Source: Podospora anserina (taxonomy: Eukaryota). From it: a stretch of 64,000 nt of DNA. Below, piece after piece: positions 2,353-37,026 of the stretch. The first letter of the stretch is position 1. Each line of letters opens with the position of its first letter. The DNA is taken from NCBI GenBank assembly GCA_017654855.1, contig CM030332.1, positions 3,286,001 through 3,350,000 of the forward strand, given 5' to 3'. The notes below the pieces were generated by a model. The model was not told the origin of the DNA. It did no database searches and saw nothing but the letters and a program-made list of their open reading frames with translations. Position numbers and translations under genes: made by a program.

Positions 2353-3102
2353 GGACGGGAAAGGGGGGTTGAAAAAGGAGTACAGCATGCATGTCTTTGA
2401 TTTGGTCATTTGAGCTTCTATTTTTGCATTGATACCCAAGCTTACCTGGTAACAGAAGCAGTCCTGCCTTATTACATACAGTTTCCCGTTCAAGGTACAT
2501 ATCAAGAGGTTCTTGAAGCCTAGTTTCTACCCAGCTATGTCGACCTGCCTTGAAGCAACCATATCGGATATCGGCAGTTGGGACAAGCGAGCTCCAACCT
2601 TACCAGGATATGACTCCCCACCATAGTGAGGCCTCTCACTTATATAGCTCCACAGTTGGATCGGATTTCGGAACAGGCAGTTTCGACTTGAACTTCTGTT
2701 TGAAATCTGCAGTGGATCATGGAATGAGTAAGCCAAGATTGGAAGTTGAAGAAACGCGCGGCCAAGGTTGCTTGGAAAGTAGAAAAGCGGCGCAGAGTTG
2801 CCGGCCGCACAGCATTTTTCTGTTGGGCGCTTGTAGTCTGGGCCCTGAATGTTGCAAAGCCCAGCGGGGACGTCATCACGGGTCGACTTGGCGGCACCCG
2901 CGCCACCAGACCACATGCGTCATCGGTCGCACTGGCGGGGTGTTTAGAGTGCCAAGCCTCACCTGGGAGGGAGAGCTTCTTGTGCGACAGAATGCGAGAA
3001 ATGTACTTTTCGGGCCTTGGATGCCGGCTTGTGTTGTGATTCGGTTGGTGATTCCAAGAGATTTGTGTCCTTGCTGCTTTGCCAAGTGTTGCTGAGCCTT
3101 GT

Positions 3103-3126
3103 TGCTGCTGCTGCTGCTGCTGCTGC
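3103..3126. repeat. (GCT)n microsatellite
   Basis: gctgctgctgctgctgctgctgc run. Confidence 0.85.
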
Positions 3127-3951
3127 CGCGTGCTTTCCAAGGTTGATGTGGTGGTTGGTCAGTGGTCATCTTGAAATATTTCCATCACCGGACCCCTGGG
3201 GGGAAGTAGGCGCTTGGTGAATGCTGGTTGCATGTGTCAGTCTCCATTAAAAAAGTATCCGTTTGCTCCGTACCTACATATTTTACTATACATTGGACCC
3301 CTTCTTCTTCCATTCATTCCTACGCCATTGAACGAGCGAGCCGGCCGAGTATCCGAGAGACGAACGGGCTTTTTGTGTTTGCTGCTTATCATACTTTTTA
3401 TTTTGAAAAGACATATAGGTTCCCCTTGCTACTACCTATTGCTGTTCCGTCAGCTGAGGCCTGTTCATTCGGAAACTGTTGGCCTGCTCCTTCTTCCACA
3501 AGCCAACCAGCCAGCCAGCTAGCCAGCCACCTACGCTCGTCGACCGAACAAAAACCGAAAGCGAACGTTTGTTGTGCGCGCCGCATACGTACCGCCGTTT
3601 CTTTCACACACGGCCGTGCTGAACGCCATTTTTGGGACCTGTCATTTCTGTTGGGCAAAGACTGTGTTGTGTACCAAGAGAATTCCAAGAGCTAAGTGGA
3701 ATCTTGAGTGTGTACGACACTTACCCCGCCATAATTCATCACACAACACACAGAGAGACGACCCCCTGTTCAGCACAACGCGGGCGGTTCCAGGTCCTCA
3801 TAGAAAGAAAGAAAGGCTTACCTTCTTTTCTTGCACTCCATTGCTGGGCATCTTGTTCTTCTTGATCGAACCTTTTCGAACGCGCGCGAAACAATAGACG
3901 GGAATATTTGGAGGTGCTAGCTAAAGGGAGGTTTCTGTGGTTGCTGTTGCA

Positions 3952-29567: not shown

Positions 29568-30398
29568 CAGCTGGAGTTCGGATGGGATAAAGTTCGGGTG
29601 GTTCTTTGTTGTGCTCCGGCTGGTTGTCGGGGAAGGGATTCCCGCTGTGTATCAGGAAGCCCTTGCTACGGATTTCTTGGGACGGGCTCAGAGTCAGGGT
29701 CTGGCTGGCTGGATTCGGGAGAAATTGGAAAGGCATTTCAGCTTATAACCCCTCATGATAGCTTCGTTTCTGCTCATTGTTATCAACAAGACCCATGTCA
29801 TCTCCTTCCTGATTCTGGAGTCTTGACCCCAGATCTCGGTGGACCAGCATTTTAAACGGAGATTGAAAGGGGGGGTTCTTGAGCAAGTGGTTGCCCGTGG
29901 GCCCGTGGGTGTCCCCTGTTGGAGTTCCACCAGCGAAATAACCTTCTGCCAAGACCCATCGCGGCTCGAACTCCCCATTTCCCATCTTCAATCAAGCCAC
30001 TTAATTTGACGCTGGGTTTCAGGCCCATGACGTTGAGGTCTTTTCTGCGTCTTTTCCATGCGGGGAACCCGACTCAAGAAGATTCTCGACTGCATGTCGT
30101 GATTCTGGAAGCGGTGGTGAGATGAAGACGATGCGGGAATCCGTTTATACGACAGCAACAAACTCCAATAAAGCATGCTGTGCGCGCCCGCAATCTGCCC
30201 TGGTGGTCGCACAACTGCCGGTGAGAATGGTGATCAGCTAACGGCCAGCGACCAGCCGAAAGGCCTGTTGGGCGTCTTCTATTTATTATTCGGCGTTTCT
30301 CTCGGCTGCCTGTGGCGGTGTCGACGCCCTCTCATGCTCTCGGAATAGTATGGCGCAACATCTCGATACGAGTGATGTCAGGCTGACAGACTGTGAGC

Positions 30399-30464
30399 AA
30401 TATTGTAAAAATATTGTAAAAATCTTGTAAAAATCTTGTAAAAATATTGTAAAAATATTGTAAA
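30399..30464. repeat. AT-rich 11-bp minisatellite (AAT[A/C]TTGTAAA)x6
   Basis: Units occur in the order A,A,C,C,A,A. Confidence 0.9.
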
Positions 30465-31087
30465 AATATAAAAACCAAAAAAAAATCTGCAGTTTTCCTG
30501 CATGTTGAAAGCGACGTGGCAAGACGTGGAGAAAGGGAATCATGATCTGAGTGAGTTGTTGATCGTCGGGCCAAGCCGTCGACCGTTCTCTTGGGCAGGG
30601 AATGGTAACGCTGCCAAGCGGGAGGTCCACCTCGTCCAAACTGGTTGGCTGCCGTTGAACTCCCCCTGTCTGTTCCTGCATATGGGATGGCACCCAGCCA
30701 ATGACATCCCCCCGCTTGGGCTCTGCAAGGTACGCGGCAACCCGTCCGACCAGGTGTGGCAATCACAAAGGCCGCCCCCCCCAAGTCGGTAGCCCCCAGA
30801 AATCTCTGCGACACTTCGGGGGGCACGGGGGGTCTCTAAAAGGGAGCAATCCCACGCCGTTCCATGCTCCGCGTCCCCCTTCCCCTTCTGTTTCCTCTCA
30901 CCAGCCATCCCAGCTAGCCATCACGCTCTTTTCTGCTTTGCCATTCGGCATCAGCCTTACACTCTTTTTAAAACACTTTTAACATCATCATTCGGCTTCC
31001 TGGCTCGACTTATTCTTCACCCAACCAAATACAAGTTTACAACTTTGACACGCGTCACTTTTACAAACACCCAACCAAATATTCAAA

Positions 31088-31534
31088 ATGCAGTTCAAGA
31101 GCTTCTTCACCGTCCTGGCCGCCGGCCTCACCATGATGGTCGCCGCCGAGGAGGACATCACCACCACCGAGACCTCGACCCTCACCCAGACGCAAACCGT
31201 CACCATCACGCAGTGCAACCCAACCATCTCCAACTGCCCCGGCCACACCACCACCTCTGTCGAGACCTCCACCTCCACCCTCACCACCTGGACCTTCCCC
31301 CTCTCCAACTCCACCATCTCGGTCGGTCCCACCGCCACCTCCAAGTTCAGCATCATCACCTCCCGCCCGGTCGTCACCGAGACCTCCATCGTTGAGGTGC
31401 CCGAGGAGCCAACAGGCACCACCCCCGCTCCGGCCGAGTCCAGCGTCGTCGAGGGCGCCGCCGCCGGCCTCGCCGCCTCGCACGCTACCGTCCTCCTCGG
31501 TGTTCTCGGTGCCGGTATTGCTCTCCTCGCTTAA
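31088..31534 (+). CDS. Small GPI-anchored Ser/Thr-rich cell-wall protein
   Basis: Signal peptide MQFKSFFTVLAAGLTMMVAA, TVTITQCNPTISNCP motif, Thr-rich body, hydrophobic GPI signal (GAAAGLA..VLLGVLGAGIALLA), and strong C-ending codon bias. Confidence 0.9.
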   Translation: MQFKSFFTVLAAGLTMMVAAEEDITTTETSTLTQTQTVTITQCNPTISNCPGHTTTSVETSTSTLTTWTFPLSNSTISVGPTATSKFSIITSRPVVTETSIVEVPEEPTGTTPAPAESSVVEGAAAGLAASHATVLLGVLGAGIALLA

Positions 31535-33212
31535 AGAAGCAAGACATTGTTTACATCTTGTCTTTTTTCTTTTGAAGCGTTCATGATTTTCTAGAGCCAT
31601 ATACCCACCCAAATATACCACCGATATTTTTTTTTAAAAAAAAAACAAACAAACAAACAAACCACACCTTCGTTGATTTGCTTCTTGTTTGCTATTTACA
31701 ACTTTGCTTCTATTCCCAACATATTTGTCAAATCTTCCACGGGGAAAGGGAAAGTTTGGAGAAATTTCACACTGGCGGATTTATTAAGATTTAACTTGGA
31801 GGGAGAAAGACTTCTTTTCTATGTGCTTGCTTGCTTGTTTTTTTTTTGATGAGATACCCTAAAGGGAATAGGGGAAAGGGGGAGGAGGCTACTGGTTGGC
31901 GAAGGGGTTGTTGTTTATTTGATGGTCGTCAAGTCAGAGAGTGAGGGAGGGAGGGAGGAAGGGGGGGAGTCAAAACGGGATTATTTTTATTCAGAAAACA
32001 TTTTACCTACTTGCTTTTGTATTTTGTGCATGCATCTGCACGTATACAAGAGATTACGACTATGAAATGAGACAAAAAACTGATAAAAACCCCTAACTTT
32101 TTTGGGCTTTTCCCGTGTTTGGGTGTCTGGTGCAGAAGATGATGTTGTGTTTGATTCGTTGTGGGTGGTAGTTTTGGAGTTGTTACATAGGTTTAATTAG
32201 GGTTTCCCTAGGAGATGGAAACACTACATAGGACTAGAAATTAGTTTCCGGTTGTGTTCGAGGCGCGGCGTGTGTGTCAACGGTTCAAGGCCTTGTTTGT
32301 GCTCATTCATGTAGTCTCGTCGTCTTTGGTGACTACAACAACTCAAGTCGAAACAAAACATCAAGCACGCTGTTATATTTTCTGTCTCTTAGGCATCTCG
32401 TTGGAACACTCTCCGTTACATCTCGATCCCCAATCCTGTACTTTATAGTATATGATTCTCATAGTCGTGACTGCCTGCCGTCTTGGGCTACCTCTTTATA
32501 CTTGAAGAAACCGAGTCACCACCAGTCATCATCATCGTCTGATGAGTCAGAGATATCCCCATCAGTGCTGCTCCCGGTCACCCCATCACGGCACCACAAT
32601 CACTCTCCTCGCAGTACTGGCACGCGGTTTCGGGTTTCTCGACGTGGTTGTTGCAGTTGCATGCTGGTTTGTGGTGATGACGGCAGGGATAGGAATGGGT
32701 ATTCATTGCTTTTGTTTTTCAAGCAGGTGGCAGATGGGTAGCGGCCAGGTTCCAGGTATGATCGAGGGACTTGAAAGACTTTTGAACTGCTGTGTAGGAG
32801 CGCTTGTGTAAGTTGAAGACTTTGAGGTCTATAAAGACATTTCGGCGGCCTTTCATTGTTGATAAACATATGGACCACTCGTCACAGGTGCCAGGAGCAG
32901 CTCATGTCTATAGGCACTTCTAAAGAGCAACAACTCAAGGAAAGAAAGAGTTATCAAAGGACAATAAGTTGATTCTCAAATCGAAATTCCCAGTTCCAAG
33001 ATATCCCTCTATAGCCTTGAGCACCAAAGTCTCTCGCCAATGACCTTCCACCTACACGCCGCTCCTGTATGCTGACAAAACGACAAATGCTCCAGATAGA
33101 CAACATGGCTGCTTTTAGAACGAGACACTCTGTTGAACATCCCCCAAATGTCCCCGAAACGGTGGCCCAACTGACCCATTCTTCAAGACCTGTTCAGACT
33201 CCTGAAATTGCC

Positions 33213-33338
33213 TCAAGTCTGCTGGCCATCGACGAATCCGCAGTGTCCATCCTGACAATGGTCGCAAAGTGCGATACCGGCAGTGACCATGGCGGTGCAC
33301 CCATGTTTAGTCTTGTGGTCGCACCATTTATTGGACAT
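33213..33338 (-). CDS. Candidate 41-aa Cys/His-rich micropeptide MSNKWCDHKTKHGCTAMVTAGIALCDHCQDGHCGFVDGQQT
   Basis: ORF is below the track cutoff. Upstream TATAAAA (33512-33506) and a 5'-UTR intron 33424-33362 (AAG|GTACCA..GCTAAT..GGCAG). Confidence 0.65.
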   Translation of the reverse strand: MSNKWCDHKTKHGCTAMVTAGIALCDHCQDGHCGFVDGQQT

Positions 33339-35098
33339 GCTGGGAGCTTGGTACTGCGGGACTGCCGGACACGATAATTAGCTGGCTGAAGCAGCTCCAG
33401 AGTCTGAAGACGGCTTTGTGGTACCTTTGATGTTGAGTCGTGGTTTTGACAAGGGTGAAGATGGAGACAGGGTTGTTTTTAAGCACGGGTGATGAAGGGC
33501 TCCGATTTTATAGATCTTAAACTTGGCTGGCAACACTGGCTACAGAACTCTTCATATTCTTGAAGAGAACACCCATCTTATACCCCGATTCCCTCCGTGC
33601 CGCCGGGCTAAGAAGCTTGCCTCCTCGGTCAACCGCACCCGTTTCCCAACCATTCAAACCCCCTATATCACTTGCCACCAACTGAGAAAAAGAGGTAGGA
33701 AAATCAGAATTTGCTGATAACAAGGCGGGCGAGGCAAGGAAAAAGCTGACGATCCGGATCACGCCCATGGCTCTCTCTGTGTGTGTACAAAAGCAAACAC
33801 GGGGTTACTTGGGTCATCCAGCACCCGGTATCGTGACGTTGACTGGACCATCATGGTACACAAGTCACCCAGACAACACCCCTTCGACGGATAGCAACAC
33901 GAGAACACCCTACCTCGGCTGAGTCAGTTCTCGCAACAGCTTGGGATCTTGAAGCACGCTACATATCAGCATCCTGACATCCCCGGTAGGGCCATGCGTG
34001 GGATCCTTTTGGTTCTGGAAGACGGTCAACCCGTCGGGTTCCAGCACGTCCATCTACGGATCTCTCGGGCTAATATGCTCGACTTGTCAGCCAGGGTATG
34101 CCAAGGCGAGATGGCGAGCTTCGATATCGGACTCCTGCAGCAGAGCTGGGGAAGGCTTGCAGACGAATGACGATAGATCGATGATTTGCTTCAGGGGCTG
34201 GGGCGTGGTGCGCCTGGATGGATATGATATCAAATGCTTGTCTGCCGGGCATCGGTGAGAACTGTGATTTATGAAGTCATTTTGACTATTCGTCCGTGTG
34301 CCACCGACCGAGTCCTTGACAGGGCATAGCTGAGGCGATATTTTGAAGTTCTAATGAAAGGATGATTCGTTGGTGCCGCCGCAGTTTTTGAAGCATCGAT
34401 TATCTTGTCCAAGGCCTCTCTGCCTTCAAGTCCAGCGATAAGCCCCACATTCCTTATCGCACTGGGGTCCGAGCTGGGGTGCCCCTCCACTGACTGCTAC
34501 GCTTCCTGGACCTCTCTCCAAGCTCTCTCGACAGCTCCCTTCTCCCGTCAACATTTGTCTGAAGGCTTGCTGTTGATATATATGTCAGTTTGCAGTCAAC
34601 GACTCCCCTCACACAGCCGAGGAATATCGCTCAAGCTAGTGCTGGTATTCGCTTGGACGCGTTGGCAGGTGCCAGGCACATGACGACAGAGCATCACCCG
34701 CCTCCTTCATCATCGCGAATGGGAGTTGACTGAGATAAGCCGACCGATCCTCCCCGAGGCTCCAGATTTGCCCCTCGTACGATCCTAAAATCTGCCTTTT
34801 AGCATCGTGGCGTTATACTTTTGTTTCTTATTGCTCCAAACTCACAGGCATTCTTACTTTTATTTCTTGACCTTGATGAGCAGCCTAGCTGGTGAACTTG
34901 TAAACCCCAAATCCACTTCGACGCGGTAACTCTCTCGAACAGACGTCAGCCTATCGCCAGACACGAGAGCGAAAGCACCGCGAGTCAAGACTATAACGTC
35001 GAGCGAAGTGGGATACAGAAAGTGGACGCGACAAACCCCCAAATTTATTCGTACAATCGACACTGGTTATTCTTCGCATGTGCTGCTGAGCAGCAGGA

Positions 35099-37026
35099 AT
35101 GGCTACACGAGACTACGGCTCGGCCCACGCCCCCATCGAGCTCAGCAGCGATTCTGATTCCGACGGAGGTTCGTCCGTGAGTGGCAGCGACTACATAGAA
35201 AGACAGGACCAAGGGAGACAGGCTCACACTGCCGTGTGCGAGTGGCGGACAGCAAGATTCCACGATCGGGAATGCTCACGCTACTGGGATTGTCCGTCGC
35301 ATGCTGTTGAGCGCGCGCTCTCTGAACATCGTCAGGAAGAGGCACAGGGGCGAGGCGGAGATCACGATATGGATGACGGCGAAGAGAGACCTGATCCTGG
35401 GGCTGTCTCGCCTTTGAGTGAGGATGATGAGCCTGACCGTGGAGCTGAGGGTAACACAAGGCCGAGGTCTCCGTCTCCAGAGGTGCCAGCATCCGAGGCT
35501 CTGCCGGCTGCCAGAAACTTGAGAACTGAAGTGCCCAACGATTCCGGATATTCGAATGAACAACGCACAGCATCTGGGGCGAGTGCAGAAAATCCAATCA
35601 TTGTGGTTAGCAGTCCTGCGGCTGCCTTCCGGAGACAACCCAGGTTCTCAGAGTCAGCGCCAGGGCCGTCAAGGACAGAACCAAGGCGGACAAGAGACGG
35701 TTACACTAGCGTATTCCAGGAACAGGATGCGAGTTCAGGTCCCTCCGGTGCTGCCACCCCGAGGCACCAACCCCTTCTGCCTTCTCGTGGGGATCCTAGC
35801 GGCGAGTTGATACTGCCAAGATGGCAGCCAGACGCTGAAGTGACCTACTGCCCTATATGCAACGCTCAGTTCAGCATATTTGTTAGAAAACATCATTGCC
35901 GGTATGTACTGCTGGTCTGAGCCATGTGGAAACCAAAAGCTGACAGGATCATAGCAAGTGTGGGCGTGTTGTTTGCGCTTCATGCTCCCCGCACCGCATC
36001 ACGATACCCTACCAGTATATTGTTCAACCTCCTGGCGCTCCCCGTGTATTCCCGCAAGGAGCCGCGATGCCGCCTTCGGACCGCGACGGATGGTATCCAA
36101 GTCTGAGTGGTGGTGAAAGAGTGAGACTGTGCAATCCGTGTGTGCTAGACCCTAACACTACTCTACCGCAAGCCTTGGGAGCGGACAACGGAAATGCAGA
36201 CACAGCAGAAGGCGCCAGCCCTGGTTCGAACCGGTGGAGCTTCTACTTTGGCGGCGCTCAGCCTGCACCTACAAGCACCGCTCACGCTAGAAGCAGGAGC
36301 GTCACGATGGTAGGTAGCATGGCTAACGCCTTGATCACTTGTCTGCCCCTCTCCTCGCCCGTTGCTGAACACGAACAACAGCCGCAGCAGCCAGGTGCGC
36401 CATCATCCTCACGTCCGCAGAACCTCGCCTACTCGCAAGACACACTGAACCGGATTCTCTCTGGCACCCCGCCGGTCTACTTTCCTGCCGCCAGCGGATC
36501 AAGTTCCCGTCGTCATCGACCATATCCGGGACCGCAGCGCTACCAGTCTATGCTGAACATGGAGGGATCATCTTCTACCGTCATGGCTGGCCCGTCAGAC
36601 CACCATCCGCACAGCTCAAGACAGCTCCCTGCCGCCCCTCAAATTGCCGAAGAAGACGAATGCCCTGTTTGCCACCGTGAACTACCGCCTCGAACTCTCC
36701 CCAACTATGAAGCCGTGCGGGAGGCCCACATCAACATGTGCATCACCTCGCACAGCGCATACGGCGGGACAAGCAGTGCTTCGCCAGGAGAGAACCCGTT
36801 ACCGCCACCGCCGCCTAGAAGGACGGGGATGTTTCCGTACACGGCCACAGAGAAGGACTGCGTGGACTCGGCTGAGTGTTCCATCTGTCTAGAAGAGTTT
36901 GAAGTGGGTGTTGCGATGGCGAGGCTGGAGTGCTTGTGCCGGTTCCACAGGGCGTGCATTGGGGCTTGGTGGGAGAGGCACCCGGGACGGTGTCCGATGC
37001 ATTCGCACGATGGTTTTGGGTATTAA
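35099..37026 (+). CDS. PIB1: FYVE + RING-H2 E3 ubiquitin ligase (Pib1-like), 3 exons
   Basis: WQPD..CPIC..RKHHCRKCGRVVC..RLCNPC FYVE domain, ECPVC, and C-terminal ECSICLEEF..RLECLCRFHRACI..CPMH RING. Introns 35902-35954 and approx. 36310-36381. Confidence 0.88.

Follow-up and report, generated by a model that had tools for sequence, protein, structure and literature searches.

The DNA analysed here, a window of 64,000 nucleotides on chromosome 1 of Podospora anserina, contains between the genes Pa_1_9350 and Pa_1_9360 a minus-strand open reading frame of 41 codons (ORF1), whose deduced product is rich in cysteine and histidine. At least five cysteines are found in 13 of the 250 ATG-initiated ORFs of 30-60 amino acids within the window, and a Cys-rich short ORF is thus not rare in itself. 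The question raised by this locus is whether ORF1 is a gene and what kind of protein it would encode. An initial annotation made from the sequence alone had proposed an intracellular zinc-ribbon or metallothionein-like micropeptide, unannotated, in an otherwise empty gap. The parts of the proposed gene and its two neighbors are:

33512-33506, minus strand: TATA box (TATAAAA), 174 nt upstream of the ORF1 ATG, read from the sequence
33425-33505, minus strand: non-coding first exon, joined to 33361 in RNA runs X2 and X6; its 5′ limit presumes use of the TATA promoter
33424-33362, minus strand: 5′-UTR intron of 63 nt, GT-AG, with a CAG acceptor and the branch site GCTAAT at 33382-33377; seen in the sequence and as a joint in 2/4 runs
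33338-33213, minus strand: ORF1, 41-aa Cys/His micropeptide, with A at position -3; the conserved core is residues 1-33
32989-33212, minus strand: 3′ UTR ending near 32989, from the end of a published stranded transcript and of an X8 contig, which may not be independent data
33920-33926, either strand: TGAGTCA, a bZIP-type candidate site present in the sequence
31088-31534, plus strand: Pa_1_9350, Ser/Thr-rich protein with hydrophobic ends, GPI-type by inspection; convergent neighbor and synteny anchor
35099-37026, plus strand: Pa_1_9360, FYVE and RING-H2 gene, with a 53-nt intron (35901-35953) spliced in 4/4 runs

The TATA box, the leader intron with its branch site and acceptor, and the 41-codon frame all lie where the initial annotation had placed them. 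The proposed pattern C-x7-C-x10-C-x2-C-x4-C is also correct for ORF1, which has five Cys (spacing 7-10-2-4) and four His. No upstream ATG occurs in the spliced leader, which measures 104 nt when counted from the TATA box.

Splicing was followed in 4 of 23 listed runs, taken from four studies, whose RNA status is a tool's guess and whose contigs give neither strand, start nor level, so that contig depths cannot rank expression. The exact junction that had been named as a check, 33361/33425 (63 nt skipped, CT..AC on the plus strand), was found in X2 (side 255) and X6 (side 21), that is, in two of the four runs and in two studies. Because the skipped segment reads CT..AC on the plus strand, the intron belongs to the minus strand. 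An X1 contig runs unspliced through the leader intron, and none of the listed X8 contigs spans it. The control intron of the neighboring gene gave its joint (35900/35954) in all four runs. ORF1 is probably conditionally expressed. Elsewhere in the window, position 31994 is G in the assembly and C in 4/4 runs, which is a possible assembly error or strain difference.

Table S1 of PMC9801653 could be aligned to the window by a single offset that gives start and stop exactly for Pa_1_9350, Pa_1_9357, and Pa_1_9360; three other rows of this table were tried, and each agrees just at one end or to within a few codons. The gene list of PMC8105982 places 9350, 9357, and 9360 directly one after another, which leaves ORF1 unannotated in P. 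anserina; it falls inside the 1099-nt "3′ UTR" published for Pa_1_9357. In a wider sense, the claim that the gene is unannotated does not stand. The best protein match to ORF1 is the Podospora pseudopauciseta hypothetical protein QC763_0011190 (62 aa, 98% identical), a hypothetical 62-aa model that terminates in ORF1 is on record for two sister species, and a paralog sits in the gene model Pa_1_21895. The N-terminal extension of QC763_0011190 is not conserved, and no joint seen in the runs corresponds to the intron of this model.

Could ORF1 be a frame that is open by chance and never translated, lying in a non-coding RNA or in the 3′ UTR of Pa_1_9357? A single row of Table S1 describes a stranded minus-strand transcript, 34477-32989 (PMC9801653). 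This transcript has ATGs ahead of ORF1, which would not be decoded from it, and points to either a form with a long leader or a merge. Moreover, no exact 41-aa record was found among 15 billion proteins. We nevertheless regard an untranslated ORF1 as very improbable, since the frame is conserved at the protein level only, stands at a syntenic place, is restored by an intron in a distant relative, and keeps its TATA box in position, as follows.

A phmmer search with ORF1 over 1.84 billion representatives (E <= 0.001) gave five hits: the 62-aa Podospora model, P0002, the unnamed P0003 and P0004, and a 103-aa Podospora model. P0002, an insect repeat, was removed as spurious. P0004, a homolog of 99 aa, has no Met at the family start position and may represent either a decayed copy or a spliced gene with a faulty model. 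The 103-aa model is Pa_1_21895 (QC76x_121895), to which no function is assigned. It ends in a 33-aa paralog of ORF1 (C2:259843-259944, equal to L002:1504-1605, minus strand; 54-55% identical), and its N-terminal extension is not conserved. With its ATG only 14 nt downstream of a TATA box, the model is probably too long, the actual product being the final 33 aa; the leader may hold a short intron. A transcript covering the entire 103-aa model is given in a single row of Table S1 of PMC9801653, and the gene is H3K27me3-marked in the wild type according to PMC8105982. Searches with single proteins over the whole 35.96-Mb genome found two loci, ORF1 and this paralog.

A metagenome scan added further members, 5 of its 70 pattern matches being confirmed (L006 and L007-L010). 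L007-L010 represent one fungus in four assemblies. L006 encodes 35 aa in one exon, with one extra residue in the spacing. In L007, a 134-nt GT-AG intron (3041-3174) lies inside the Cys14 codon, and once it is taken out the spacing is complete and the product has 34 aa; among the GT-AG cuts tested, it is the only one that restores the spacing. L010 has a 9-nt deletion located within this intron. The L007 gene faces an ortholog of Pa_1_9350 (44% identical, E 1.6e-13) in the same orientation as in the window. Its other neighbor, which we take to be an OLA1-like gene, has its P. anserina counterpart (84%) 194 kb away on the same contig, so L007 comes from a distant relative and stands at a syntenic place. 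Starts and ends nearly coincide across the family, the paralog having 33 aa, L006 35 aa, and L007 34 aa. Beyond ORF1, the family thus comprises the paralog, the syntenic ortholog, and three further homologs, a range that is a lower bound given by phmmer and by protein and metagenome pattern searches.

Over 33 codons, pS was 0.75-1.02 (saturated) and pN 0.23-0.35 in all six pairs formed by ORF1, the paralog, L006, and L007, with one L006 codon omitted and with homologs chosen by protein likeness, which biases pN downward. For this reason, the independent part of the evidence is the synteny of L007 and its second exon. The flanking DNA of the same four genes shows no likeness. A profile built from three homologs with ORF1 excluded ranked ORF1 first among 1540 segments (56.3 bits, E 2e-16). 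TATAAA is found at -174 in ORF1; the paralog has it at -224 and the L007 ortholog at -227, and it was not found in the 394 nt upstream of L006. On these sequence data, ORF1 is a protein-coding gene under selection and belongs to a small unnamed family conserved in other fungi. We infer its translation, and that it is a true protein-coding gene is very likely.

The initial annotation recognized no named family for the peptide, and had overlooked that a family exists, including a possible tandem copy (see below). No significant Pfam or PDB match was obtained for ORF1. Among the family members, Pfam gave a single row, ALAD (E 0.042, under the cut-off, in 1/5 members), which was dismissed as chance, and the PDB sequences gave 0 matches at E <= 10. 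The literature listings, which cover sources outside subscription journals, contain no description of the family and no text naming Pa_1_9357, Pa_1_21895, or Pa_1_9350. Pa_1_21895 and Pa_1_9357 are not in the bacterial-response tables of PMC4835503. Pa_1_21895 has no row in the supplements of PMC3495915, which is uninformative on metallothionein traits such as thiolate clusters with several metal ions, induction by metal, and tolerance, and is not in the main text of 10.1101/2024.12.09.627484, whose supplements may bear on expression in sexual development.

What, then, would the peptide do? An alignment of few sequences (A2, n=4) has 13 invariant columns: C6, H8, C14, C25, C28, and C33, together with the non-ligand residues K4, D7, G13, V18, L24, D26, and G31. 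Every homolog has either His or Cys at position 12, which gives seven putative ligands (C6, H8, H/C12, C14, C25, C28, and C33) in the pattern [C]-x-H-x3-[H/C]-x-C-x10-C-x2-C-x4-C. His27, His32, and the tail beyond residue 33 are not kept across the family; the duplicated CDH pointed out initially is present in ORF1, but its second copy is not shared by the family. An exchange of His and Cys is tolerated at metal ligands and not at disulfides. The exchange at position 12 and the odd number of Cys therefore argue for metal ligands rather than disulfides, and the seven kept positions point to a metal site. Metal binding by the ORF1 product is likely on this pattern; seven ligands would fit two bridged zincs, or a single zinc with ligands to spare.

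The same features bear on a disulfide-bonded, defensin-like peptide exported without a signal peptide. ORF1 is small and Cys-rich with fixed spacing, and adjoins a gene for a cell-surface protein, as might be expected of such a peptide. Secreted Cys-rich peptides and defensins, however, have a signal peptide and an even number of invariant Cys, whereas ORF1 and its paralog have an odd number, position 12 alternates between His and Cys, and no member has a signal peptide. A defensin-like product is thus most improbable. ORF1 has no hydrophobic stretch at its N-terminus, in agreement with the intracellular location initially proposed.

The initial annotation had offered a zinc ribbon or a metallothionein-like peptide, and we find support for neither in its classical form. 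A zinc ribbon needs two CxxC knuckles on a three-stranded sheet, whereas ORF1 has a single CxxC followed by a predicted helix (residues 26-30), and no zinc-ribbon Pfam family matched. Classical fungal metallothioneins have about 20-33% Cys, CxC or CC clusters, and no aromatic residues; ORF1 has 12.2% Cys, two aromatic residues, no CxC, and a conserved core of non-ligand residues. Cys content in the homologs is 14-17%. The heptaCys motif of basidiomycete metallothioneins, C-x4-C-x-C-x2,3-C-x-C-x4-C-x-C (PMC12508003), differs in spacing from ORF1, whose Cys content is also lower. The fungal metallothionein PaMT1 was ruled out, as the PaMT1 primer in PMC2654708 gives another N-terminus. The PF02069 profile finds its Synechococcus control and does not find the ORF1 locus, its sole match in the genome lying elsewhere (15.3 bits against a cut-off of 33). 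Not being PaMT1, lacking the heptaCys motif and a PF02069 match, and having a single CxxC, ORF1 was classed neither as a metallothionein nor as a zinc ribbon.

A looser relation is harder to set aside, namely a His-containing metallothionein-like buffer that would store or detoxify Zn, Cd, or Cu in the manner of RaZBP1/2 or SmtA/BmtA. The family has the size (33-42 aa), the Cys plus His content (21-26%), the seven ligands, the several copies, and the lack of a targeting signal that such a buffer could have. SmtA and BmtA presumably resemble ORF1 in that they fold around a zinc site which includes His ligands and have a Cys-x-x-Gly-His stretch close to the end, but neither PF02069 nor any PDB sequence or fold matched. 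The RaZBP1/2 peptides of Russula bind Zn through Cys and His (PMC9696665; cf. PMC8003315). Likened by description rather than by sequence comparison, they are small, intracellular, and Cys/His-rich like ORF1, which may work like them. Against a buffer stand a Cys content of merely 12-17%, the fixed spacing, the conserved non-ligand residues, the absence of any Pfam metallothionein match at the locus, the distinctness from PaMT1 as judged by its primer in PMC2654708, and upstream regions whose common motifs do not rise above background. We consider a buffer possible though rather unlikely.

Conserved non-ligand residues combined with 12-17% Cys argue instead for a folded module, and the ORF1 core is probably a one- or two-zinc module of this kind. 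Only one of five AlphaFold models of ORF1 was confident (pLDDT 80.8, the other four 52-60; pTM 0.49), and this model shows a strand-turn-strand followed by a helix at residues 26-30 at the CxxC. With the predicted model, Foldseek gave 0 matches at E <= 0.001 in the PDB and viral libraries, and a fold comparison against 48,161 chains gave 0 with Z >= 2. Weak viral rows (TM 0.4-0.6 over ~30 residues, E >= 0.41) include NinG, HNH, RING, and zinc-binding proteins. Treble-clef fingers have a knuckle and hairpin plus a helix, with two ligands contributed by each. The predicted strand-turn-strand and CxxC helix of ORF1 would fit such modules, but these have four ligands against seven in ORF1, which forms a complete protein by itself, and every row stays at E >= 0.41. 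In an Atlas look-up, the best values for ORF1 (0.86) and for the possible tandem copy (0.85) were both under the trust level.

Cys/His ligand sets bind Fe-S clusters and Cu(I) as well as zinc. As the identity of the metal is not fixed by the ligand set, a redox-active or Fe-S/Cu-binding thiol peptide, acting as a redox switch or cluster carrier, could be considered in place of a zinc module. No Fe-S or redox family of Pfam matched at the thresholds used, however, and the CxxC-helix layout of the predicted model would be typical of zinc sites; we hold this reading to be improbable.

In the zinc-module reading that we prefer, ORF1 would be transcribed from the TATA promoter and its leader intron spliced out. 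The product, a microprotein that is not secreted, would fold with its first 33 residues round one or two Zn2+, the seven conserved Cys/His positions serving as ligands. Residue 5, V18, and L24 would form a small core, and the CxxC would stand where a short helix begins, as it does in zinc modules of the treble-clef type. The peptide would then serve as a folded binding module with a zinc-dependent fold, either a small adaptor or an inhibitor of its partner, and not as a bulk metal sponge. It is the conservation pattern alone that makes a binding module, rather than a metal buffer, the most likely function. The full proposal, a zinc-folded cytosolic or nuclear microprotein that binds a partner, has in our estimate about an even chance of being right.

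The gap around ORF1 is not empty, as had been claimed, but also holds the following:

32706-32578, minus strand: ORF2 (42 aa), which lies 500 nt downstream of ORF1 and is possibly a diverged tandem copy
33476-34375, plus strand: polyadenylated opposite-strand RNA over the ORF1 promoter (extent of the X8 contig)
34087-34396, minus strand: Pa_1_9357, gene model with a span of 310 nt that requires an intron

ORF2 aligns without gaps on the seven-position spacing and has 5/6 of the invariant ligands, with His replacing Cys6 and with Cys at position 12. A match of this grade occurred in 1 in 150 simulated 64-kb windows, and BLAST gave 10/31 identities (E 1e-4). Against the family profile, it scored 6.4 bits (E 0.78), under the best chance scores. 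It has no TATAAA, matches only itself in the genome, and has no counterpart in the L007 gap. A structure predicted without an alignment was uninformative (pLDDT 52.8). The weak cover of ORF2 in the runs was counted as no evidence, and a motif drawn from ORF1 and ORF2 together (2 vs 0 in 200 simulations) was not counted. We lean slightly towards a real divergent copy. A run variant at 32596 lies in the last Cys codon of ORF2 and is synonymous. Upstream of Pa_1_9350, AT-rich short repeats (30378-30503) translate as FYKIFT-like words.

The opposite-strand RNA is followed by nine untemplated A behind 34375 in one contig of one run (X8), at a place where the genome has no run of A; contigs of X6 (34376) and X2 (34382) end within 7 nt of it. 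It contains short ORFs only (33767-33922 and 33994-34170). No list of coordinates for the 1732 nTARs is given in the readable files of PMC9801653, so this RNA may be one of them. The intron of Pa_1_9357 is recorded as retained in PMC9801653, and no joint for it was found in 4/4 runs; Pa_1_9357 is doubtful as a protein gene.

As to regulation, the TGAGTCA pointed out in the initial annotation is present, but a role for it finds no support. The motif is absent from the four other upstream regions examined, and occurs at five sites in 64 kb (10 counts on two strands), which gives a chance of ~8% within 1 kb. Upstream 7-mers common to the family numbered 4 against a null mean of 5.3, that is, no motif above background, and CAAGGT, TTTGCKC, and MRE-like sites were not common to the upstream regions of the family. 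Control of ORF1 by overlapping transcription is a hypothesis only. It enters a bolder proposal, which we judge unlikely: in filamentous ascomycetes, the core would form a microfold not described so far, with seven ligands and two zincs, which annotation has overlooked or modelled wrongly and which stands alone, with paralogs and the tandem ORF2. As a zinc- or redox-dependent regulator, it would be switched by overlapping transcription, through the RNA that crosses the promoter on the opposite strand and through RNAs with long leaders from which ORF1 is not decoded.

Three gene models are corrected by this analysis, namely the UTR of Pa_1_9357, Pa_1_21895, and QC763_0011190. Small Cys/His zinc peptides are already known, and what is new here is an overlooked gene and an unnamed family. 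A conserved microprotein family is thereby added to a genetically tractable model fungus, and it would be the greater surprise if the seven-ligand core turned out to act as a regulator or to have a new two-zinc fold.
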